Positions 3,100 to 37,124 are shown, counted from the stretch's first letter. The stretch is DNA of 38,450 nucleotides from a virus (IMGVR_UViG_2778261515_000019:1-38450), one strand, 5' to 3'. Numbers and translations: made by a program. Notes: generated by a model not told the origin, from the sequence alone.

Positions 3100-4101
3100 T
3101 TAAGCTGCAAAATCAAGTAATTCGCGGTCCATCTCATCCATAGCCGGAATGGTTGGAACATATGGTTTATATCCTTCTTCTACATCAAGAAGGTTGTTTA
3201 AGCTGGCATCAGAAATATCACAAGAAACCACGGTTAACGCTGGTTTGATAATCGGCTGATCAACAGTAACCGCCTCCGGTGCTTCTTTTTCTTCTTTCGC
3301 TTCTTCCTGGGTAGCTGCCGGAACTACTGCTACCTTAACTTCCGGCGCTTTAACTTCTTTTGCTTCCAGTTCTTCTACACGGATTTCAAGAACTTCAATT
3401 TCTTTTTTCAGACTAATGTTTTCTTCCATCAGCATAGCGAATTTGCGTTCCATCTCAGCAAGACGTTGCTCAAAAGCACGATGCGCATCAGACAGAATCT
3501 GAATATCACGCTGCTGTAATTCTTCTTCGTAGTTGGAAACGGTTTTTTCTTTAGTGGTTTCTTTCCATACTGCCTTATCAACAGCGTTAACATTCAGTTT
3601 AGCTTTGTTGGAAACGAAGAAAGAAATATTGAATTTCTCACCGTGAGCACAATCAGACCATGCACCAACAACACTAGAAGCCAGAGCAAAGTTTTTAACT
3701 TTACCATTAACGAAACGGCCTTTAGCATCGCGGCGGGAAGCGTGGATCATGTTACCCCAGAGGCTACCAGCTTCATCTTGCAGGATAGACACTACATAGG
3801 ATTCGTCGCCGTTCTTGTAAGCGATAGCATATACTTCGCGCTGGTCTGGTTTAACCATTGCTTTCAAAGTAGCTTTCTTACGCTCTAAACCACGGTATTC
3901 TTTTTTCCAGTCGGAACCAGCATGATAGAGAGTGGTGTACAGAGAATCGATAGATTCTTCTTTATAAATATTAGTGCCAATAGTTAATTCGTCGGCTTCG
4001 TTGCTGCCATAGTTACGAATTTCGATATCTGCATCGTACTGATATTTTGCGGTGTCTGCGGTGTTGCTGTAAACGGTAATAGAGAAGTTATTTTGTTTCA
4101 T
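3100..4101 (-). CDS. Hypothetical protein, 333 aa, N-terminal globular domain, central coiled coil, acidic C-terminus
   Basis: RBS AGGAA upstream of ATG; heptad-like LAEMERKFAMLMEENISLKKEIEVLEIRVEELEAKE; same length as neighbour; no family recognised. Confidence 0.6.
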   Translation of the reverse strand: MKQNNFSITVYSNTADTAKYQYDADIEIRNYGSNEADELTIGTNIYKEESIDSLYTTLYHAGSDWKKEYRGLERKKATLKAMVKPDQREVYAIAYKNGDESYVVSILQDEAGSLWGNMIHASRRDAKGRFVNGKVKNFALASSVVGAWSDCAHGEKFNISFFVSNKAKLNVNAVDKAVWKETTKEKTVSNYEEELQQRDIQILSDAHRAFEQRLAEMERKFAMLMEENISLKKEIEVLEIRVEELEAKEVKAPEVKVAVVPAATQEEAKEEKEAPEAVTVDQPIIKPALTVVSCDISDASLNNLLDVEEGYKPYVPTIPAMDEMDRELLDFAA

Positions 4102-4202
4102 TGTAGTAATTCCTTATGTTAAGTAGAAGCCTCCTTGTTGCCGCAAGGGGGCTTTTTTATTGGTTAAAAGTTTCATAATGTAATTCTCAGTCAAAGTTGA
4201 TC

Positions 4203-4385
4203 TCACCAAACGGTAGCTTCAATCTTCACCTTGATTTCATATTTCTTTAAGAGTTTGTGGAAGGTTGATTTATCGATGCCTTCATTTTTAAACCACTCTT
4301 CAATCCTCACTCCCGGCGTTAGTTCAAAGTAGCGTTTTGCTTTTTCCAACATAATCTCGCGAGTAAATTTAACAGTTCTAGCCAT
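4203..4385 (-). CDS. Small HTH DNA-binding protein (60 aa from ATG at 4385; ORF track extends to 4421)
   Basis: RBS GAGGA 8 nt before ATG at 4385; HTH-like GIDKSTFHKLLKKYEI; first gene of minus-strand operon. Confidence 0.5.
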   Translation of the reverse strand: MARTVKFTREIMLEKAKRYFELTPGVRIEEWFKNEGIDKSTFHKLLKKYEIKVKIEATVW

Positions 4386-4484
4386 GTTACATCCTCTACA
4401 TTGTGGATTATTTTTTCTCATAAAAAGAGCTTTTCGCCCTTGATACTTCTATTTATAAAATGATTTTCAGAAAACCCTGTAAAA

Positions 4485-4506
4485 CCACTGTATATTCGAT
4501 CAGTGG
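4485..4506. promoter_or_regulatory. SOS-box-like palindrome (CTG-N10-CAG core) next to a promoter-like element for the minus-strand operon
   Basis: CCACTGTATATTCGATCAGTGG; left half ACTGTATAT matches the LexA consensus half-site as I recall it. Confidence 0.35.
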
Positions 4507-4569
4507 GAGCACGAATTGCTAAAGAGAAGATTAATAATTAATCAATTCGTGCAGTATTCAACCGAAAAA

Positions 4570-4591
4570 GCACTGTATATCTAACCAGTGC
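4570..4591. promoter_or_regulatory. Second SOS-box-like palindrome
   Basis: GCACTGTATATCTAACCAGTGC, same CACTG-N10-CAGTG architecture as 4485..4506. Confidence 0.3.
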
Positions 4592-4742
4592 CGTATTAAT
4601 TAACAGTGAATAAGGAGATTTTCAGAAGTGAACAATCATTTCTCACTTGTATTTAGTAGAGAGAAAATCTTGCTTATCATCTATATGGGGACTGTTTTGA
4701 AAATTTCAACCCCTACCAGTGAGAAAAAGTATAAAATAATCC

Positions 4743-4756
4743 TTGACAGTTGTCAA
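4743..4756. promoter_or_regulatory. Perfect 14-bp palindrome overlapping a -35-like hexamer
   Basis: TTGACAGTTGTCAA. Confidence 0.3.
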
Positions 4757-4957
4757 CACTCATGACCTAAGCGAGAAAAGGCTATCAAATTTTTTGTGCG
4801 AAAATGGCAAATAATGATTATCAACCTTTATAACCTATTATGGCACGGGGACCTTTTGACAATTTCTTTTAAATCATTAAGTTACAGCGATTTTTGATGA
4901 TTTTTTGGTTAAATAATATACAAGAATTTTCTATCAAAATATTTGAATGAATTTAAA

Positions 4958-5232
4958 GGTTTCCCCGCGATATCCCCACTTTAGAAGATGTATCCCCGTC
5001 ACCGTCCCCGCGTAAAATCCCCGTTTTGGAAGCAAAATCCCCCGGATTAGGGTAGTTTCCCCGCGATATCCCCGCGTAAAATCCCCGGTATTAGATGCGT
5101 ATTTTTATGTAAGTATATGATTTTAAATGCTTTCCCCGTGGTGTCCCCGTATCATCCCCACGTTATCCCCGACCTGTCCCCGTGGTATCCCTTCCCCGTC
5201 CCTTTCCCGTCCCCGTTTCAAAGTGGGGAAAC
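4958..5232. repeat. Iteron-like array of about 17 TCCCC(G) motifs, many spaced 10 to 11 bp
   Basis: Repeated units TTCCCCGCGATATCCCC and CCCCGCGTAAAATCCCC each occur twice; run TTTCCCCGTGGTGTCCCCGTATCATCCCCACGTTATCCCCGACCTGTCCCCGTGG; array bounded by GGTTTCCCC ... GGGGAAACC. Confidence 0.65.
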
Positions 5233-5269
5233 CAGTAATGACAGGGCTTAGAAGCGATCCAGACCTACA

Positions 5270-5310
5270 GACCAATATACCTACATACCATCAAACCAAT
5301 ATACCTACAA
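5270..5310. repeat. Direct repeat of 15 bp (ACCAATATACCTACA, two copies 11 bp apart)
   Basis: Exact duplication read directly. Confidence 0.45.
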
Positions 5311-5658
5311 AGATATTATGCGCCCTGCGGGGCGCGAGTAATCTGCTTCGAATCATTCAAGAAGGGATTTGTAATAGTGGTTACTAGATGATTCTAGATC
5401 ACTTTAATGATCATGAAAGGTATTGGTATCCCTTCGGGATTGCAACCTTCGGTTGCCAAATTGCTTCCTGATTATTATTTCTCCAAAAGAAAGATTCTTA
5501 TATTCTAAAGATACTTCTTCGTTTTGATGATGATTTAATCAAAATCTATGAAGGAGGCGAAGCCGACTGAATACCAATTCCTTTCAAATTAGACAAAAAT
5601 TTCTCGTTATAAATAATAGTGAACTTACTTTGATTCACTTTTTTAGAGGATTTCCACT

Positions 5659-6108
5659 ATGATCAATACTAAAACTCCTTTCATTCTTCTGGGTCTGAAC
5701 CATGATGATAATCTGGCTATGATGCATGTTTTCGCTAATCGTGGTTATAACATCATTCGTCATTCCGAAGACTCCAATTTCTCAACTGCTTTCTATGCTC
5801 TTAAACGTAATGGTCGCCCTACGGTGATCGTAGACTGCTTTACTGATGAAGGTCGTGAACAATACAACAACATTCCGGCAATTATTGTTCGTGATGACCT
5901 GCCGTTTGATGTTCGTGAATATGACGTTGATTTAGGCTCTTACTATGGGATCGCCGATCTTGACCAGATTATGGCTGATTATGGTAAACAACCCGCTAAG
6001 GAAGCCCAAGAACACGATGAAGACGACGAAGATGATGATTACACACCAATCGCGTTTTCTTCTCACAATAGCTTCTACGGCTACGATGAAGGCTTAGAAA
6101 TGCTGTAA
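5659..6108 (+). CDS. Hypothetical protein with strongly acidic C-terminal tract
   Basis: RBS GAGGA; 149 aa; EAQEHDEDDEDDDYTP acidic run. Confidence 0.55.
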   Translation: MINTKTPFILLGLNHDDNLAMMHVFANRGYNIIRHSEDSNFSTAFYALKRNGRPTVIVDCFTDEGREQYNNIPAIIVRDDLPFDVREYDVDLGSYYGIADLDQIMADYGKQPAKEAQEHDEDDEDDDYTPIAFSSHNSFYGYDEGLEML

Positions 6109-6229: not shown

Positions 6230-6562
6230 ATGAAAGAATTTACCATCACTAAATCCCTGTATGACTGGACTGTTAAAATCTCCAGCAAAACCGTTTCTGT
6301 AAGCCCTAGCCATGTAGAAAATGATTGGGGCGTATCCCGTGAAACTATCTCCCGTAGTATGCATGTTCCGTTTGATCTGATGTCCTTAACTGGTATTCAT
6401 GCAATGCTGGAAGTTCGCGAACAATTCGAAGCTGGTAATCACAATGCGACTCCAGTTAGCAATCACCTTCTTACTAATGAAGAACGTGAAATCATCGAAA
6501 ACTGGCGTTATGAATATGCGATTCCTTACTACGAAGAAGATCAGGTAGAAATCGATTGGTAA
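6230..6562 (+). CDS. Hypothetical protein, 110 aa
   Basis: RBS AGAGGA; clean ORF ending TAA; no family recognised. Confidence 0.55.
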   Translation: MKEFTITKSLYDWTVKISSKTVSVSPSHVENDWGVSRETISRSMHVPFDLMSLTGIHAMLEVREQFEAGNHNATPVSNHLLTNEEREIIENWRYEYAIPYYEEDQVEIDW

Positions 6563-6666: not shown

Positions 6667-7518
6667 ATGAATACTGTTAAAACTATGAATACTGCACCGA
6701 CTTTCTTTGCTTCTCCGGTAGCTGCAAACGAAGATTATTCCGATGTTCGAATGACTTTGCGTGAAATTTCGGAATTTATTGGGGTACGTTTTGATAATAT
6801 CGAACGTAGTTTACATCGCCTTGTTAATCAAGGTGTTGTGAAACTCCCTCCAATGGAGGAAGTTAAAAACCACAGAAACCAGACAGTTAAAGATTATGTT
6901 TTTTCCGGTAAGCAAGGGCGATTGGATTCCATTGTTCTTATTGCTCAAAACGTACCTGAAATGACTCGTAAATTAGTAGAGCGTTGGGATTATCTCGAAA
7001 ATGAACTTTTAAAGAAAGAAGAAGAGAATAAAAGCCCGTTCCCAGATGCAAGCAAGATGACTAAGCTCGATTGGATGCGCGAAGCGGTTAAACTTGAAGA
7101 AGAAAAAGAACAACTGATTCAAGAAAAACAACAATTGGTTGATCTTCATATCCGTAAAGCCATCGACGCGCACAGTCTAACCCGCTTATTAGGCGAAAAA
7201 CGAGGCTCTACAAAGGTACAAATGATTCTGAAAGGGTTATGTACTGCTGGTGTTCTTGAGCGTCGTCTGGATGCTTCTGGTAAGCCTAACGGCTATGATC
7301 TGCTGCCTCCTGGCTATATGTTCGCTCGTATGTCGGCACACGGTCAGATCGAGTTCACTGCTGATGCTATTCCGCATCTCGTAAAACTCGGATTGCTTGA
7401 AGAAGAAAAGTCCGCAACTTTGAAATTGCCACAGCCGAATAACTCACGAGCAATCGTCAATAATACTGCTTTGCTGATTCGTCAGAATGCTGGATCACTG
7501 GAACACTTCGGACTGTGA
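6667..7518 (+). CDS. Phage regulatory protein (Rha/antirepressor-like N-terminal domain) with coiled-coil middle region
   Basis: RBS AAGGGGA; N-terminal MTLREISEFIGVRFDNIERSLHRLV resembles Rha-type winged-helix domain; ends with tandem stops TGATAA. Confidence 0.45.
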   Translation: MNTVKTMNTAPTFFASPVAANEDYSDVRMTLREISEFIGVRFDNIERSLHRLVNQGVVKLPPMEEVKNHRNQTVKDYVFSGKQGRLDSIVLIAQNVPEMTRKLVERWDYLENELLKKEEENKSPFPDASKMTKLDWMREAVKLEEEKEQLIQEKQQLVDLHIRKAIDAHSLTRLLGEKRGSTKVQMILKGLCTAGVLERRLDASGKPNGYDLLPPGYMFARMSAHGQIEFTADAIPHLVKLGLLEEEKSATLKLPQPNNSRAIVNNTALLIRQNAGSLEHFGL

Positions 7519-25659: not shown

Positions 25660-26079
25660 ATGCTAAAAACTAGGCTTATCACCGATTACATCAATTCTTT
25701 AATAGGTCAGGAGTTCGTTCAGGGTGAGAATGATTGCAATCTAATTGCATGTAAGATCATCGATATTCTCGCTGGTACTGACCTATATAATTCTCTTTAT
25801 AAAAAATATTCAACTAAAGAAGAAGGCTTGAAAATCTGCAAAGAATTAAGCGGGTATTCAAATATCCTTCAACCAATTAAGAAACATTTCAAATTAGTCA
25901 CTGATGATTTACAGGACGGCGACTTACTGGTCACAGCCCACAAATTAGGAAACCGTAATTATTATTCCGTAGTTCCTCATTATTCCGGTTATGGCCTCGT
26001 TGAAGAAGATGGTATCTGGATGACCATTCCTGTTTCAGACATTGACTATGAACAAGTTTATAGATTCGGGGGTGAATAA
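25660..26079 (+). CDS. Tail assembly protein K-like (NlpC/P60-type segment)
   Basis: RBS GGAGG; GENDCNLIACKI candidate catalytic Cys; gpK position. Confidence 0.45.
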   Translation: MLKTRLITDYINSLIGQEFVQGENDCNLIACKIIDILAGTDLYNSLYKKYSTKEEGLKICKELSGYSNILQPIKKHFKLVTDDLQDGDLLVTAHKLGNRNYYSVVPHYSGYGLVEEDGIWMTIPVSDIDYEQVYRFGGE

Positions 26080-31863: not shown

Positions 31864-31896
31864 AACAAAAGCGCCTCTAGTGGGCGCTTTTTTGTT
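31864..31896. terminator. Bidirectional terminator between convergent plus operon and helicase gene
   Basis: AAGCGCC-TCTAGTG-GGCGCTT flanked by A-run and T-run. Confidence 0.65.
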
Positions 31897-33394
31897 ATAT
31901 AGCAATTGTTTTAGTTGCATAGCTGAACTTGTCGGTTAGATAATAGCGGATTCTCTCAAGTGCATGTTTTACCGCATAATTTTTATGCTTGACTTTTCCG
32001 TTACGACCGAATATACACAGATGATCTATAAGATCCCAGACCGTTGCAATATCCTTAGAACCATGTTTACGCAATGCACGACCGATACTCTGACGAACGA
32101 TAGTTGATTCCTTCACGGGATGACCGAAAATAACATGGTGCAAGTTCTTAATTGAAACACCAGTAGAGAACACACCATAGGATGCAACGCAAATGATCCC
32201 GGTTTCCCCTTCCGCTAATTTCTTAAATTCATCACGTTCTTCTGTCTTAACTCCACCGTCAATATAATAAACCTTGTTGTGTACCTTCTGTAACGCATCA
32301 TACATAAGTTTTCCGTGCTTAGTATTGCGGAACATCAGGAATACGTTTTCGCCCTTCTTAGCGAGTTTTAGCGCCAAATTACAAGCAAACTTATTTCGTC
32401 GTGGGTTAGACGTAATATACTTGATCTCTTCCGCATATTCTCTCCCCTTAACCGCGCTACATTCCTCATCGGTATAACGAAGGAAAAGACAGTTAATTTT
32501 CAGTTTTGTCACCTGCCCTTCTTCCATCAGGCGGTCAATACTCACGATCTTAGAAATATCACCGAAAAGCCCGACATACTGCATTAAATGGCACTTTGAT
32601 TCTTTCGGGGAACCAGTCATGCCGATCTTAAATTGGCAATGATTCATTCCGTTAATGATATTGGTAATATTTTTGGCACTAGCCTTATGCGATTCATCAA
32701 CTATCAACATTCCATATTGTCGGAACCATTCAGGAGGCATCTTGCAAGCTGATTGCCAGGTACTAACCGTGATTAACCTGTCTCCCGGATGTTTCCCGCT
32801 ACCACTCATCATTGTATGAATTGCTTCATAAGGGAATAACCGATAATCGATGAAATCATCCCTCATTTGAACCACTAGCGATGTAGTAGGGACAATGATT
32901 AACACTTTTCCGGTGTAATGCTCTAAGTACCAGCGAGACAGCATACAAGCAATCAATGACTTTCCGGCACTGGTAGGAAGAACCAGCATTCTACGGCGAT
33001 TATGAATACCCTGAAAGACTGCCTCCCTTTGATACCAGTAAGGATTGATTTTATTGGAACCGGAATACACTTCTAGGGAATCAATCCATTCATTAATCGC
33101 GTCTTTGGTTACATCTTCCTTCTCAAGTAATCTGGGGTCAATCCAGACTGAATACCCCATATTTTTAACGAAGACACCCAACGTTTTTAATAGTCCAATT
33201 GGTAGGGTGTTTTCATGCGTAAACAGTCTTATTCGTCCATCCCAGCCAGAATACTTGTAACGGGGGCTAAACCTAGCCCCTTCAACCTCAAACGAGAAAT
33301 AATCTCTTAATTCCATTCCGATAGAAGGAGAGCAATCAACCTTAACGAAACTGTAATCTTGAAAATGAATTTTAATATCTTGCATTAGTTCCAC
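31895..33394 (-). CDS. SF2 DNA helicase, UvsW-like
   Basis: Motif I LPTSAGKS, motif II LIVDESH; N-terminal IKIHFQDYSFVKVDCSP...LRDYFSFEVEGARF...WDGRIRLF strongly resembles T4 UvsW as recalled. Confidence 0.8.
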   Translation of the reverse strand: MELMQDIKIHFQDYSFVKVDCSPSIGMELRDYFSFEVEGARFSPRYKYSGWDGRIRLFTHENTLPIGLLKTLGVFVKNMGYSVWIDPRLLEKEDVTKDAINEWIDSLEVYSGSNKINPYWYQREAVFQGIHNRRRMLVLPTSAGKSLIACMLSRWYLEHYTGKVLIIVPTTSLVVQMRDDFIDYRLFPYEAIHTMMSGSGKHPGDRLITVSTWQSACKMPPEWFRQYGMLIVDESHKASAKNITNIINGMNHCQFKIGMTGSPKESKCHLMQYVGLFGDISKIVSIDRLMEEGQVTKLKINCLFLRYTDEECSAVKGREYAEEIKYITSNPRRNKFACNLALKLAKKGENVFLMFRNTKHGKLMYDALQKVHNKVYYIDGGVKTEERDEFKKLAEGETGIICVASYGVFSTGVSIKNLHHVIFGHPVKESTIVRQSIGRALRKHGSKDIATVWDLIDHLCIFGRNGKVKHKNYAVKHALERIRYYLTDKFSYATKTIAI

Positions 33395-33682
33395 TCCACA
33401 CTTGCAATATTCTTTATATTGTTTAGTGATTTATTGCAGTAGTGGAATGTTTCAGTTTTGCCGTATTCAATCCCGCCTATACCCACATCCAGATAGAGAA
33501 TGCAATAGTAAGACAATTTTCTCTGATAAATAGTAGTGAACTTATTATTTTAGAGGAAACTACTATGAAACTTGCTTACGCTGCCTAATGCAATTAAATT
33601 AGGCTATGTCACAACAAACAGTTGATAAATAGCCATTTTTATAGGGGAGTATCAGAACTCCCCTACAAACTGTTATTTGCAG

Positions 33683-34177
33683 TTATCTATACTCATTTGG
33701 AATTTCGATATGAAGTGTCTCACACAATAACTTCACATCATGTGCATCATTTTCATCAAACTCGTATCCCAGATGGAACATTACTTGACTATATGGTTCA
33801 ATACAGGAAACCTCTATTTCCTCAATTCTTCCTTTACCCGAAAAAGTTTCTACCGGAAAACAATCCCCATCATAAAGAATTTCACCTTCGTCCGTATATT
33901 CAAAACAATGCAAATCAATAATTCTGTTTTTCAAATCTTCCCATACAGTATGGTTCAATGTTGTATATTCCATCTTAATCTCATAAAAGCCATTAGCTTT
34001 CATTATTTCTATAAAGTTCTGATAATCGTTCTTTTCTACAAAAATGTCAATATCATTATGGGCTCTTGACTGATATCCAAGAAGAGCATCTACACCCCAT
34101 CCACCATCAAGAAAGACTTTAATCTCCGCATCTATTGCAAATTGAAGAATCTGTTTTACATCTGTTATATTGACCAT
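33683..34177 (-). CDS. lnuC: Lincosamide nucleotidyltransferase, Lnu family (lnu(C)-like), 164 aa
   Basis: Motifs FLDGGWGVDALLG, HNDIDIFV, FHLGYEFDENDAHD typical of Lin/Lnu nucleotidyltransferases; 495-bp ORF from ATG at 34177 (track ORF extends to 34246). Confidence 0.7.
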   Translation of the reverse strand: MVNITDVKQILQFAIDAEIKVFLDGGWGVDALLGYQSRAHNDIDIFVEKNDYQNFIEIMKANGFYEIKMEYTTLNHTVWEDLKNRIIDLHCFEYTDEGEILYDGDCFPVETFSGKGRIEEIEVSCIEPYSQVMFHLGYEFDENDAHDVKLLCETLHIEIPNEYR

Positions 34178-34200
34178 CTTATCATCTCCACAAATTCTAA

Positions 34201-35244
34201 TTAGGCGACCAGAGGAACTGCTGGTCTGTTTGATAAATCTCTGCATTTAGCAGTTTTCAATGTTGCCAAAACAAAAGTTAAGAAGATGTTCCTTTTCTCC
34301 ATGTCGCTTTCTTTGGCGTAATTTACAAGGTTATTCCACACAAGATAGTTGTTCAGATACTTGGTAGAAACACCGTTAAAGCCACGCATAAACCTCTTTA
34401 GCTGGCTATGGTAGCTATTGATATGTTGGATATTATAAATGCCTTTCTTGGCTTTGCCAGTCTTTAACTGCACAAGGTCAATGCCATTGGCATTTGTAAA
34501 TCTCACATAGGAGTTCATCTTGTCCGTAACAAGAGTGGAATTGGTCTTAATCCTACCATCATAAATATGATGTAAATCTCTTGTAGAAACTCTACCAGTA
34601 TTCGTAATCTTGGAGATAGACAAGCCATTCCTATTAACCGCACAAGGAACACATACCTTTTCTTGGGACAAGCCTCTGATATGTGTAGAATGACCACGCT
34701 TATGAGCCTTGCGTGGCATAGCAAATGTCTTACTCTTGCTATGATTGCCCTTGTACGAGATGGCGAAAAAAGTTTCGTCAGCCTCAATAATGCCGTCAAG
34801 GGTAACATCGTCTGCCATATTCTGAAGTGCATCCAAAATCTTGTGTCTCCAAAGGAATGCGGTGTTTCTGTGAATCCCACAAGCAACAGCAGTCTTACGA
34901 ATGGATAAGCCATTCATCATACAATCAATGTACTGCTCCCACACGGACAAGTCTTTTCTTGTACCAGACACAATGGAGTTCGTAGCAATCACGAAGGACT
35001 TGCCACAATCCTTACATACATATCGCTGTGTGCCATCTTTACGATGACCATTGCGAACCACATGGATACAGCCACAAAGAGGGCATACACGACCATTTGC
35101 AAAGCGTTCCTTTGCTACGAAATCTTCAATATTCAAAGACTTTACAAAGGCAGGACTTAAAAGCATTGTTTTAAGGCTTTCCTGCTCTGCGACAGTCAAC
35201 TTACCGATAATATCTAATGCGTCTTTGATAGTAGGCATATCCAA
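34201..35244 (-). CDS. IS1595-family (ISXO2-like) DDE transposase
   Basis: 347 aa; N-terminal zinc-ribbon CPLCGC...CKDCGK; DDE core; directly upstream of lnu gene inside the IR-bounded element. Confidence 0.75.
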   Translation of the reverse strand: MDMPTIKDALDIIGKLTVAEQESLKTMLLSPAFVKSLNIEDFVAKERFANGRVCPLCGCIHVVRNGHRKDGTQRYVCKDCGKSFVIATNSIVSGTRKDLSVWEQYIDCMMNGLSIRKTAVACGIHRNTAFLWRHKILDALQNMADDVTLDGIIEADETFFAISYKGNHSKSKTFAMPRKAHKRGHSTHIRGLSQEKVCVPCAVNRNGLSISKITNTGRVSTRDLHHIYDGRIKTNSTLVTDKMNSYVRFTNANGIDLVQLKTGKAKKGIYNIQHINSYHSQLKRFMRGFNGVSTKYLNNYLVWNNLVNYAKESDMEKRNIFLTFVLATLKTAKCRDLSNRPAVPLVA

Positions 35245-35395: not shown

Positions 35396-37075
35396 TTAAA
35401 TTCCAAATTCCTGTAATGGACCTGGTATTTCCTCTTCTGGTTTCCAGTTCTTATCTGTCAGCATGTCTAAACATGGATGCAGAACAAGCCCGTTACTCTC
35501 CAGAATCTGCCTATCATTGATAGTCTTCAAATCAACGAAGATCCGGCCTTTCCTCGGTCCTCTTGAATTTTCTATTACAACTCTCTGGGTCTTGCCATCG
35601 ATGTATTCCAGTACAAACAAGTTTTTGTACTTGTCAATCCTGCTACACCCGATCCGTTTTAGAGCTTGCTTAATCTTAAACCGGACCTTAATGCGATCCT
35701 CATTATAAACATCTTCTAAATCAAATTCTGCGAGCTTCTCCCAGCCTTGAGAGTCCACAGAATACATTTCCTCTTCTGCCATCTTAATCTGATTGTAGAG
35801 TGTTTCACGCTCGCTATTGAGGGTAGTAATCTGGTCGGCTAACTCCTTCGTTGCTCCTGTCATAGCAGAAAGGGTAATCAGGTTATCAATCTTGCGTGAT
35901 ATTTCATCAATCTGTACTTTCAAAGCCGGAACCGGATTAGCCTTATCCTCAGCAATCCAGATTTTATCAGCCAGCAATTGCAATACAGCTTTCTCTAATT
36001 GATCACCTCGAAAACTCCAGTTTGTATGCACACATGCAATACGACTAGAGCGCATTGCATCGCATGAATAACGATATTGGTTAGGACGTTTGTTAGTTCC
36101 TTTCACCTTAACCATAGCGGAACCGCAATGTTCACATTTCAATAGACCAACACCACTAAGCAAGGGAATAGGTTTAACTTCTTCCTTGTCTCCATAGTTA
36201 CATGCTCTAACACCAATGCTTTTCTTAAGGTGATAAAACTCAGCGTCATCTAGCACACGAGGATAATAATCCTTTAACTCATACTTAACGCCATCTACAG
36301 AGATTTCCTTGATACCAATCAAAGCGCGGGTATGGAACAACCTTTCAATCATTGCCCGTGACCAGTTTGAATGCCTCTTGTGACTTGCGGCTGGTGGTGG
36401 TGTATATGTCGCGTTAAGGTGATCCAGTATTTCGGCGGTAGACCGTCCATTCCTGCGTAATTCCACAACCTCCTGAACAATAGGGAAGAAGACCGGATCG
36501 GGACACACATAACCGGAAGTGGTATCAGTCCACCACATATTCTTTCCAATTTCCTCGATTGCAACAGCCGGATTTTGTGGATTTTCTTGATGAGCTTTAA
36601 TCTTAATCAATGCGCTTGAGTTAGTACGATTGCGCTTAGTCTGACTTTCCTCGTTAGCTCTCGCAAACAACATGACACTCAACAGCAAATCAATAGGATT
36701 GGCATTAACCGATTCCTTGCTATAGACCTTACCATCCATGCCAGTTACGATAGTTATTCCCCTACGGATAATCGAGAGAAATAGCTCTTGTGCTTCAATG
36801 ATGGATTGGCGAGAGATACGGTCCAAGTTTTCCACAACCAGCCAGCTACCAACCGGAACAGATCGACCAATCTCATCCAGAAAGCGAGATAGTGCACCTG
36901 TTCTACTGTTAGCCCCTTTGAATGCAGATACACCAAAATCCTGATAGCTTGTAACTAGCTCAAGATCATATTTTGCGGCTATCTCTGCGGCTGTTCTCTT
37001 CTGGCGTTCATAAGAACTACCATCCGCTTGCTTCATAGACGAGAAGCGAATATACGAATACAGTTTAGTTTTCAT
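35396..37075 (-). CDS. Large serine recombinase (resolvase/integrase family)
   Basis: N-terminal catalytic motif YSYIRFSSMKQ...ERQ; central recombinase domain; zinc-ribbon Cys cluster CEHCGS...SCD...CVH; C-terminal coiled coil; ATG at 37075 (track ORF starts at TTG 37090). Confidence 0.8.
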   Translation of the reverse strand: MKTKLYSYIRFSSMKQADGSSYERQKRTAAEIAAKYDLELVTSYQDFGVSAFKGANSRTGALSRFLDEIGRSVPVGSWLVVENLDRISRQSIIEAQELFLSIIRRGITIVTGMDGKVYSKESVNANPIDLLLSVMLFARANEESQTKRNRTNSSALIKIKAHQENPQNPAVAIEEIGKNMWWTDTTSGYVCPDPVFFPIVQEVVELRRNGRSTAEILDHLNATYTPPPAASHKRHSNWSRAMIERLFHTRALIGIKEISVDGVKYELKDYYPRVLDDAEFYHLKKSIGVRACNYGDKEEVKPIPLLSGVGLLKCEHCGSAMVKVKGTNKRPNQYRYSCDAMRSSRIACVHTNWSFRGDQLEKAVLQLLADKIWIAEDKANPVPALKVQIDEISRKIDNLITLSAMTGATKELADQITTLNSERETLYNQIKMAEEEMYSVDSQGWEKLAEFDLEDVYNEDRIKVRFKIKQALKRIGCSRIDKYKNLFVLEYIDGKTQRVVIENSRGPRKGRIFVDLKTINDRQILESNGLVLHPCLDMLTDKNWKPEEEIPGPLQEFGI

Positions 37076-37086
37076 ACCATTTCCAA

Positions 37087-37124
37087 ACAAAAACGCCCCT
37101 ACCGCGTATTATAACGATAGGGGC
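37087..37124 (-). terminator. Terminator between gene 37141..37386 and recombinase gene
   Basis: 10-bp stem GCCCCTACCG/CGATAGGGGC (one wobble in RNA sense) then U-run in minus sense. Confidence 0.5.

Follow-up and report, generated by a model that had tools for sequence, protein, structure and literature searches.

Putative LexA operators and a near-consensus marbox in the early control region of an Escherichia coli-type prophage

The 38,450-nucleotide stretch of viral DNA analysed here, which we refer to as the window, contains a 1.24-kb intergenic region (positions 4422–5658) that raises a question of regulation. From the sequence alone it had been proposed that two SOS-box-like palindromes in this region form paired operators about 85 bp apart, serving either LexA of the host or a phage repressor of similar specificity. 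Are these palindromes LexA sites and, if so, which promoter would they control?

The window is a ~38-kb E. coli-type prophage integrated in hicB. Positions 1–351 encode the 5′ part of the hicB antitoxin gene, followed on the + strand by genes for a lambda-type large terminase, a portal protein, capsid and tail proteins and an endolysin; a large serine recombinase is encoded on the − strand (35396–37090). A 1.6-kb query (window 4100–5700) matched E. coli OkiPb01713 at 98% identity, and there hicB is split by a prophage spanning ~37.5 kb, between hicA and ydcR. Relatives of the region are present in 58 of 5426 complete E. coli genomes (about 1%), and the 60-aa protein encoded next to the palindromes has 17 homologues, in E. 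coli and Salmonella prophages. Judging from the hicB insertion and from these relatives, the host is an enterobacterium, E. coli or Salmonella. LexA of such hosts recognises the classical SOS-box consensus. With chromosomal integration in E. coli and relatives in both E. coli and Salmonella pointing to a host with an E. coli-type LexA, the classical consensus printed in PMC3009722, TACTGTATATATATACAGTA, is applicable here.

The prophage family itself is poorly represented among known phages. No isolated close relative was found in the phage collection, where the best TerL match has 43% identity, and a near-identity search of the region against GenBank phages and PLSDB plasmids gave no match. 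Almost all early genes are without family matches, recognisable repressor or replication genes were not found in the prophage family, and an Rfam scan of positions 4000–5800 matched no family. Between the endolysin and integrase genes lies a − strand cargo block (31895–35244) encoding a UvsW-like helicase, an aminoglycoside-2″-nucleotidyltransferase-like protein and an IS1595-family transposase; it is missing from the closest E. coli prophage (H1), which has a GIY-YIG nuclease gene elsewhere instead.

Table 1. Features of the intergenic region and its leftward neighbour, in window coordinates.
Feature	Position	Strand	Description
60-aa HTH-like protein gene	4203..4385	-	Heads the leftward operon; of the conserved coding genes, the closest to the boxes
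Hairpin + U-run	4422..4444	-	Terminator/attenuator-like or 5′-UTR stem-loop; just upstream of the 60-aa gene
LexA box 1 (putative)	4486..4505	.	CACTGTATATTCGATCAGTG; weak/borderline; PWM 9.4, HI-like 13.1; directly abuts 20-bp marbox
Marbox (MarA/SoxS/Rob motif)	4509..4523	+ (rightward)	GCACGAATTGCTAAA; 14/15 match to consensus gcactaattgctaaa
Inverted repeat	4509-4518 and 4543-4552 (arms)	.	GCACGAATTG / CAATTCGTGC; spans marbox and candidate -10
Candidate -10 of rightward promoter	4550..4555	+	TGCAGT in the window; predicted start ~4562
LexA box 2 (putative)	4571..4590	.	CACTGTATATCTAACCAGTG; strong box; PWM 19.9, HI-like 6.5
LexA box 3 (putative)	4589..4608	.	TGCCGTATTAATTAACAGTG; degenerate here (CTG -> CCG); PWM 11.7, HI-like 12.8
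P_L, strong sigma-70 promoter (predicted)	4728..4756	-	TTGACA-17-TATACT; 11/12 consensus; top promoter score 14.7; start ~4721
Direct TCCCCG repeats, ~22 copies	4956..5228	+	Iteron-like/centromere-like; follows the cassette within the 1.24-kb intergenic region

Both palindromes are where they had been placed, CCACTGTATATTCGATCAGTGG at 4485–4506 and GCACTGTATATCTAACCAGTGC at 4570–4591, and their start-to-start distance is indeed 85 bp. Each contains CTG-N10-CAG and the common 10-mer CACTGTATAT. We scored them with a position weight matrix (PWM) built from the 16 E. coli SOS boxes in Table 4 of PMC3009722, on which the training boxes themselves score 13.9–28.8, and with a heterology-index-style (HI-like) score derived from the same 16 boxes, for which the leave-one-out range of known boxes is 0.5–12.9. 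Box 2 is the best PWM site in the 38-kb window and falls within the range of proven SOS boxes, so the proposed check by PWM came out in its favour; box 1 was borderline, scoring under every training box. Exact score distributions give a chance expectation per 38-kb window of 0.011 sites scoring at least 19.9, the value of box 2, and of 2.0 sites scoring at least 9.4, the value of box 1, while the probability that a site scoring 9.4 or more occurs within ±150 bp of box 2 is ~0.016. The score of box 2 is far beyond chance; that of box 1 alone is not.

The two palindromes are thus not equivalent, and the picture of two paired operators changes in a second respect. A further site, box 3, which had gone unnoticed, overlaps box 2 by 2 bp at an offset of 18 bp, so that the strong operator consists of the adjacent boxes 2 and 3. 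The core of a LexA box, CTGT-N8-ACAG or minimally CTG-N10-CAG around an AT-rich centre, is present at this locus: boxes 1 and 2 read CTGT-N9-CAG, and box 3 reads CCGT-N8-ACAG in the window and CTGT-N8-ACAG in most relatives. Compared with experimentally supported E. coli boxes, box 2 lies inside the range of scores, and boxes 1 and 3 are, in this copy, at or below the weakest known. Another LexA-like site in the window, GACTGTTAAAATCTCCAGCA at 6268–6287 (score 14.4), lies inside a 110-aa ORF, is degenerate in relatives (CAG to CGG in L001) and is probably due to chance.

To see which bases are kept, we compared 20 unique variants of the cassette as well as more diverged Salmonella loci. Every one of the 20 variants has box 1 at an identical offset. 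Among the variants, the changes in boxes 2 and 3 fall at spacer positions 7–14 and the CTG/CAG arms are almost invariant, the rare arm changes (TACTG, AACTG, CAGC) giving bases that are common in real LexA boxes. The CTG arm of box 3 is kept in 16 of the 20 (TGCTGTAT..AACAGTG), yielding the canonical CTGT-N8-ACAG; most of the best scorers among the relatives reach a PWM score of 18.3–18.7, and one variant attains the maximum of 20.1. The change of CTG to CCG is confined to four variants, this window included. Since positions 4420–4800 are highly conserved throughout the E. coli clade, footprinting is informative only in more distant relatives.

Such relatives bear on the palindromes. In Salmonella loci L070 and L071, 5 positions have changed in the right half of box 1 and 6 in that of box 3, and CAG is still in register. 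Box 1 has here become CACTGTATATTTTCACAGGG, a canonical CTGT-N8-ACAG with a PWM score of 13.7, and the CACTG/CAGTG hairpin is destroyed; overall, these variants read CACTG...CAGGG and TGCTG...CAGTA, breaking the CACTG/CAGTG hairpin while keeping or improving the LexA consensus. The extended CACTG/CAGTG architecture on which the original prediction was built is therefore not what is conserved; CTG-N10-CAG is. A third Salmonella locus, L074, has a cassette pared down to a single near-perfect LexA box, TACTGTATATTCATACAGTA, which scores 28.2 and lies 13 nt upstream of a forward marbox. Finally, in the distant relatives from Salmonella (L009–L011) and Proteus (L068) we found neither LexA boxes nor replacement palindromes. 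The 60/61-aa protein of relatives without LexA boxes is 65–85% identical, the 61-aa Proteus product being the one at 85%. Since the boxes are absent from these distant relatives despite a conserved scaffold, SOS control would be a clade-specific add-on. In two E. coli relatives, L072 and L073, the region ~170–190 nt upstream of the 60-aa gene contains two forward marboxes, and in the place of box 1 there is no more than the relic of half a LexA box (AAATGTGTTAAACCACAGCA), which scores 8.3. From these comparisons, LexA boxes appear to be gained and lost by the cassette.

Taken together, the E. coli or Salmonella host, the score of box 2, the retention of the arms while spacers and flanks vary and the near-consensus box of L074 indicate that the palindromes are very probably binding sites for host LexA. 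As judged from scores and conservation, this reading has good support at box 2 and, in relatives, at box 3, and is plausible for box 1, which is weak or borderline and not the equal of box 2.

Between boxes 1 and 2 lies a second regulatory motif that the original prediction had missed. The MarA ChIP-seq consensus is gcactaattgctaaa, and at least 14 matches in 15 was its authors' threshold for a conserved marbox (PMC5684230); the 15-mer GCACGAATTGCTAAA reaches that threshold. It is the only site with two or fewer mismatches in the window, and the number of sites with at most one mismatch expected per 47-kb genome is ~0.006. It forms the core of the 18-mer AGCACGAATTGCTAAAGA (4508–4525), three bases from box 1, is invariant in the family and points rightward in every examined family member that has one. 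A reading of the 18-mer as a T7-like or sigma-54 promoter was rejected because the spacing is wrong, there is no phage RNA polymerase and the marbox match explains the motif. The inverted repeat that spans the marbox is probably not a selected element either, its right arm being degenerate in most relatives and the repeat as a whole largely lost in L070 and L071.

The marbox is also found well outside this family. The exact 18-mer occurs in 54 IMG/VR stretches, its carriers being prophage relatives, T1-like virulent coliphages (the Rogue1/phiKP26 group) and temperate phages. In temperate IMG/VR contigs L017, L021, L035, L037, L063 and L067 it lies between the Q-like antiterminator and holin genes, where a late promoter would be expected, with no −10 at class II distance. 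Phage phiKP26 (L069, NC_042038.1) has 11 marboxes with two or fewer mismatches, one of them perfect, against 0.125 expected (for example at 460, 1576, 18870, 28407, 36288 and 39214 on the + strand and at 26042, 43283, 44435 and 45270 on the − strand). All lie between genes and point the same way as the gene that follows, and in 10 of the 11 cases a TAnnnT hexamer comes 20–21 nt further downstream, a class II geometry. This arrangement suggests that phiKP26 promoters depend on host Rob, MarA or SoxS; a search for an AraC-family regulator in phiKP26 found none, and we found no published report of phiKP26 marbox promoters.

The position of the marbox is compatible with control in either direction. 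Class II marboxes occupy the window from −36 to −55, and class I marboxes are in reverse orientation with their centre between −56 and −85 (PMC12052159). The marbox here is centred at ~−46 in forward orientation relative to the predicted rightward start, or at ~−71 in reverse orientation relative to a predicted leftward start, both within the published ranges.

For rightward control, the evidence comes from the candidate −10 hexamer and its surroundings. It reads TACATT or TACAAT in 18 of the 20 variants, TACAGT in L002 and TGCAGT only in this window, with T, A, A and T at hexamer positions 1, 2, 4 and 6 in 19 of 20. The block running from this hexamer to box 2, TTCGTACATTATTCAACCGAAAAAG, is invariant even in the diverged Salmonella cassette of L070 and L071, in which a TTGATT −35 lies 17 bp upstream (TTGATT-17-TACATT); in L070 this is the best + strand promoter candidate. 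Relative to the predicted start, box 1 covers −76 to −57, box 2 covers +10 to +29 and box 3 covers +28 to +47, a placement that would be the natural geometry for LexA repression of the predicted rightward promoter. The rightward orientation of the marbox is in keeping with such a promoter, which would be convergent with P_L, ~160 bp apart.

We infer a model that extends from LexA and activator binding, through the rightward promoter and the direction of control, to the biological output. The rightward promoter, with its poor −35, would depend on an activator bound to the marbox near −46. In undamaged cells, LexA on boxes 2 and 3 (+10 to +47) and on box 1 (−57 to −76) would shut this promoter, and upon DNA damage RecA-stimulated cleavage of LexA would free it. 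Rightward transcription would then run head-on into P_L and continue to the repeat array and to the rightward genes located ahead of the terminase and structural module, the presumed output being prophage induction.

Three observations count against this model. First, this copy has a G at the critical second position of the −10 (TGCAGT) as well as a damaged box 3 (CCG); thus, if the model is right, this copy is weakened. Second, the marbox is 26 nt from the −10 as against 20–21 nt in the T1-like promoters, and so fits the broad class II window only. Third, no conserved coding gene was found on the + strand for ~1 kb downstream. A 45-aa ORF at 4628–4765 with a good ribosome-binding site was considered as an SOS-induced small protein or toxin and rejected, since it carries frameshifts or premature stops in 10 of the 20 variants. 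On balance we tentatively take the rightward promoter as the one under control, with a confidence just short of even; the full statement, that LexA operators and a marbox-assisted rightward promoter lie together in an early control region, we regard as an even call from the sequence comparisons.

The DNA that rightward transcripts would cross is rich in repeats. The TCCCCG array has a phasing of ~11–13 bp, an inverted copy at its end and an AT-rich stretch at 5095–5130, and different repeat units occupy the same place in relatives (TTTTTGCCCCT in L009, TTTGCGAT/TTTACGAT in L010 and ATCCCTAG in L068). A second repeat family with an 8-bp period (ACCTACA / CCTACACTA) is located at 5260–5307 of the window and, ~450–620 nt upstream of the 60-aa gene, in L070, L072 and L074, and is much expanded in Salmonella and E. 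coli relatives. The first rightward gene (5659–6108) encodes a 149-aa protein with a long acidic tail and a conserved ...EGLEML end, which has no family or PDB match and whose homologues in relatives are 37–90% identical.

The strongest competing explanation, which we consider unlikely but a serious contender, is that the LexA boxes govern leftward expression of the 60-aa HTH gene and two 333-aa coiled-coil genes. These form the leftward operon, with the 60-aa gene (start at 4385) in first place, and no conserved coding gene other than the 60-aa gene lies within 250 bp of the boxes. Box 1 is 99 bp, and boxes 2 and 3 are 184–222 bp, from its ATG, distances that compare with 8–236 bp for Salmonella SOS genes. 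Leftward control could operate by either of two routes. In the first, LexA sitting at +114 to +236 would stop polymerases elongating from P_L, which is the only strong promoter and would transcribe across boxes 3, 2 and 1 and then through the hairpin (4444–4422) to the 60-aa gene; P_L is kept in every relative, whether LexA boxes are present or not. The usual place of action of LexA is the core promoter or its immediate vicinity, however, rather than a site more than 110 nt downstream. In the second, LexA at box 1 would block a weak promoter near the palindrome TTTATAAA (4452–4459), with the marbox, reversed and at ~−71, as a class I site. Class I is defined by just such a reverse orientation with a centre between −56 and −85, and TTTATAAA and the adjacent hairpin are conserved family-wide, but this promoter candidate is without a usable −35 and the strongest boxes, 2 and 3, are the farthest from it. 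Candidate leftward promoters overlapping boxes 2 and 3 are not conserved, as judged from the 20 variants and L070: TACAGT in box 2 was rejected as a leftward −10 because both hexamers are lost in many variants, and TACAGT in box 1 because its −35 matches at only 2 of 6 positions. Above all, the LexA box and marbox of L074 are on the far side of P_L, where they cannot affect leftward transcription, and it is mainly for this reason that we rate leftward control below rightward control.

Several elements of the predicted leftward transcription unit merit description in their own right. The −35 of P_L is embedded in a perfect palindrome, TTGACAGTTGTCAA (4743–4756), kept as TTGAC-N4/5-GTCAA in distant relatives, and this palindrome may be an operator for a phage regulator. 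The hairpin at 4422–4444 folds at −6 to −10 kcal/mol, and its stem sequences differ among the window, L003, L009, L010 and L068; together with the adjoining palindrome TTTATAAA it is kept family-wide 35–60 nt upstream of the 60-aa gene. A strong GC-rich hairpin with T-runs at 4125–4156, between the 60-aa gene and the first 333-aa gene, was called as a + strand terminator, its neighbours both being on the − strand. An AlphaFold model of the 60-aa protein has three helices (pLDDT 69) and resembles a generic three-helix bundle; no significant family or fold match was found for this protein, only insignificant matches to DNA-binding domains.

The second alternative is that a phage repressor recognises CACTG-N10-CAGTG and that the likeness to an SOS box is coincidence or mimicry. 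The palindromes of boxes 1 and 2 (CCACTG/CAGTGG and GCACTG/CAGTGC) extend beyond what LexA requires, the CAGTG at the end of all three boxes is infrequent in E. coli boxes, and the early region encodes a wealth of proteins without known function. Against this, L070 and L071 lose the extended arms (CAGGG, CAGTA) and keep CTG-N10-CAG, single arm substitutions elsewhere lead to bases common in LexA boxes (TACTG, AACTG, CAGC), L074 has a textbook LexA box, and the Proteus and Salmonella relatives, whose neighbour proteins are 65–85% identical, are without replacement palindromes. We also found no candidate for the protein itself. The repressor that the original prediction offered as its second option thus goes unsupported, there being neither a candidate protein nor palindromes in the Proteus relative with its 85% identical neighbour, and we consider it very improbable.

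A final and, if anything, even less probable explanation is that the palindromes act not as DNA sites but as RNA hairpins in the ~300-nt leader from P_L: the leader does fold better than shuffled sequences (z = −3.4), RNAalifold keeps the box 2 hairpin and a marbox stem, and two stem substitutions in the 4509–4552 repeat and one in a hairpin at 4640–4668 are G-U compatible only on the − strand, but the stems of boxes 1 and 2 have no compensatory double change and four single changes that break or weaken pairing, the box 1 stem is destroyed in L070 and L071 even as the match to the LexA consensus improves, box 3 makes a poor hairpin despite being a good LexA box, and the PWM scores would be left unexplained. 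The patterns seen in L070, L071 and L074 therefore favour LexA over both the CACTG-N10-CAGTG repressor and the RNA hairpins.

If host LexA binds the boxes, what would it hold in check? Among the window proteins scanned we found no S24, CI-like or known antirepressor domain. Searches in Pfam, PHROG, NCBIfam and PADLOC linked neither the 60-aa protein nor either of the 333-aa proteins to an antirepressor; a homologue of the Gifsy, 186 Tum or N15 AntC type was not found next to the boxes, and only a distant 283-aa Rha-like protein (6667–7518) matches an Ant-type PHROG, via its HTH region. A 200-aa reverse-strand protein was rejected as a repressor, having no family or PDB match and homologues confined to this prophage family. 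By analogy, LexA itself could conceivably serve as the lysogenic brake, as it does in GIL01 (PMC4551915), or an unrecognised antirepressor could be under LexA control, as in the Gifsy phages (PMC3121763).

Both analogies are partial. The tum gene of coliphage 186 and antC of N15 form LexA-controlled antirepressor modules, as do the modules of Gifsy-1, -2 and -3 (PMC3121763). Like these phages, and with the same E. coli and Salmonella host range, the present prophage would couple induction to the SOS response through host LexA boxes, without a self-cleaving repressor. Unlike in these phages, where one box covers the antirepressor promoter, here there are three boxes that surround a marbox inside the leader of a strong convergent promoter, and no neighbouring gene resembles a known antirepressor. 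In Vibrio phage CTXphi, LexA represses PrstA directly and RstR is needed. LexA also represses P1 of Bacillus phage GIL01 directly, in this case requiring the small co-factor gp7 (PMC4551915). As in GIL01 and CTXphi, several SOS boxes would lie at an early promoter, here a predicted one, no CI-type cleavable repressor was found among the scanned proteins, and LexA itself would keep lytic transcription off. These are, however, other phage types in other hosts, and a co-factor like gp7 or RstR was not identified here.

The arrangement of the boxes has precedents of its own. Tandem overlapping SOS boxes occur in colicin operons and two adjacent boxes at lexA, with offsets of ~15 bp in colicin E1 and 21 bp in lexA. 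Boxes 2 and 3 likewise stand side by side and, in the favoured rightward model, would lie just downstream of the −10, allowing tight cooperative repression; unlike in those cases, the offset is 18 bp, box 3 is mutated in this copy and a further box is found 85 bp upstream. Similarly to promoters of the marA/soxS/rob regulon (PMC5684230, PMC12052159), the putative rightward promoter has a forward 15-mer with 14 of 15 matches upstream of a −10-like hexamer and no good −35, but its marbox lies 26 nt from the −10 compared with about 20 nt in the marbox examples of T1-like phages. We found no published report of LexA boxes flanking a marbox.

Beside CI cleavage, LexA boxes are the standard route by which prophages couple their induction to DNA damage, so this much is to be expected. 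SOS operators of a prophage are an element of known kind, and it is their arrangement with a marbox and a convergent promoter that is unreported. What is unusual is the occurrence of three boxes, two of which bracket a near-consensus marbox, inside the leader of a strong convergent promoter in an uncharacterised prophage family. A bolder proposal, which we regard as a long shot, is that this family has no lytic-switch repressor of its own: LexA would hold off an early rightward promoter that also needs Rob, SoxS or MarA at the marbox, forming a convergent-transcription switch. If this were true, induction would integrate DNA damage with oxidative or antibiotic stress. Were it confirmed, the locus would provide a simple, testable case of a prophage reading two host stress regulons at one promoter, and would bear on prophage induction by quinolones and mar/sox inducers in enteric bacteria.
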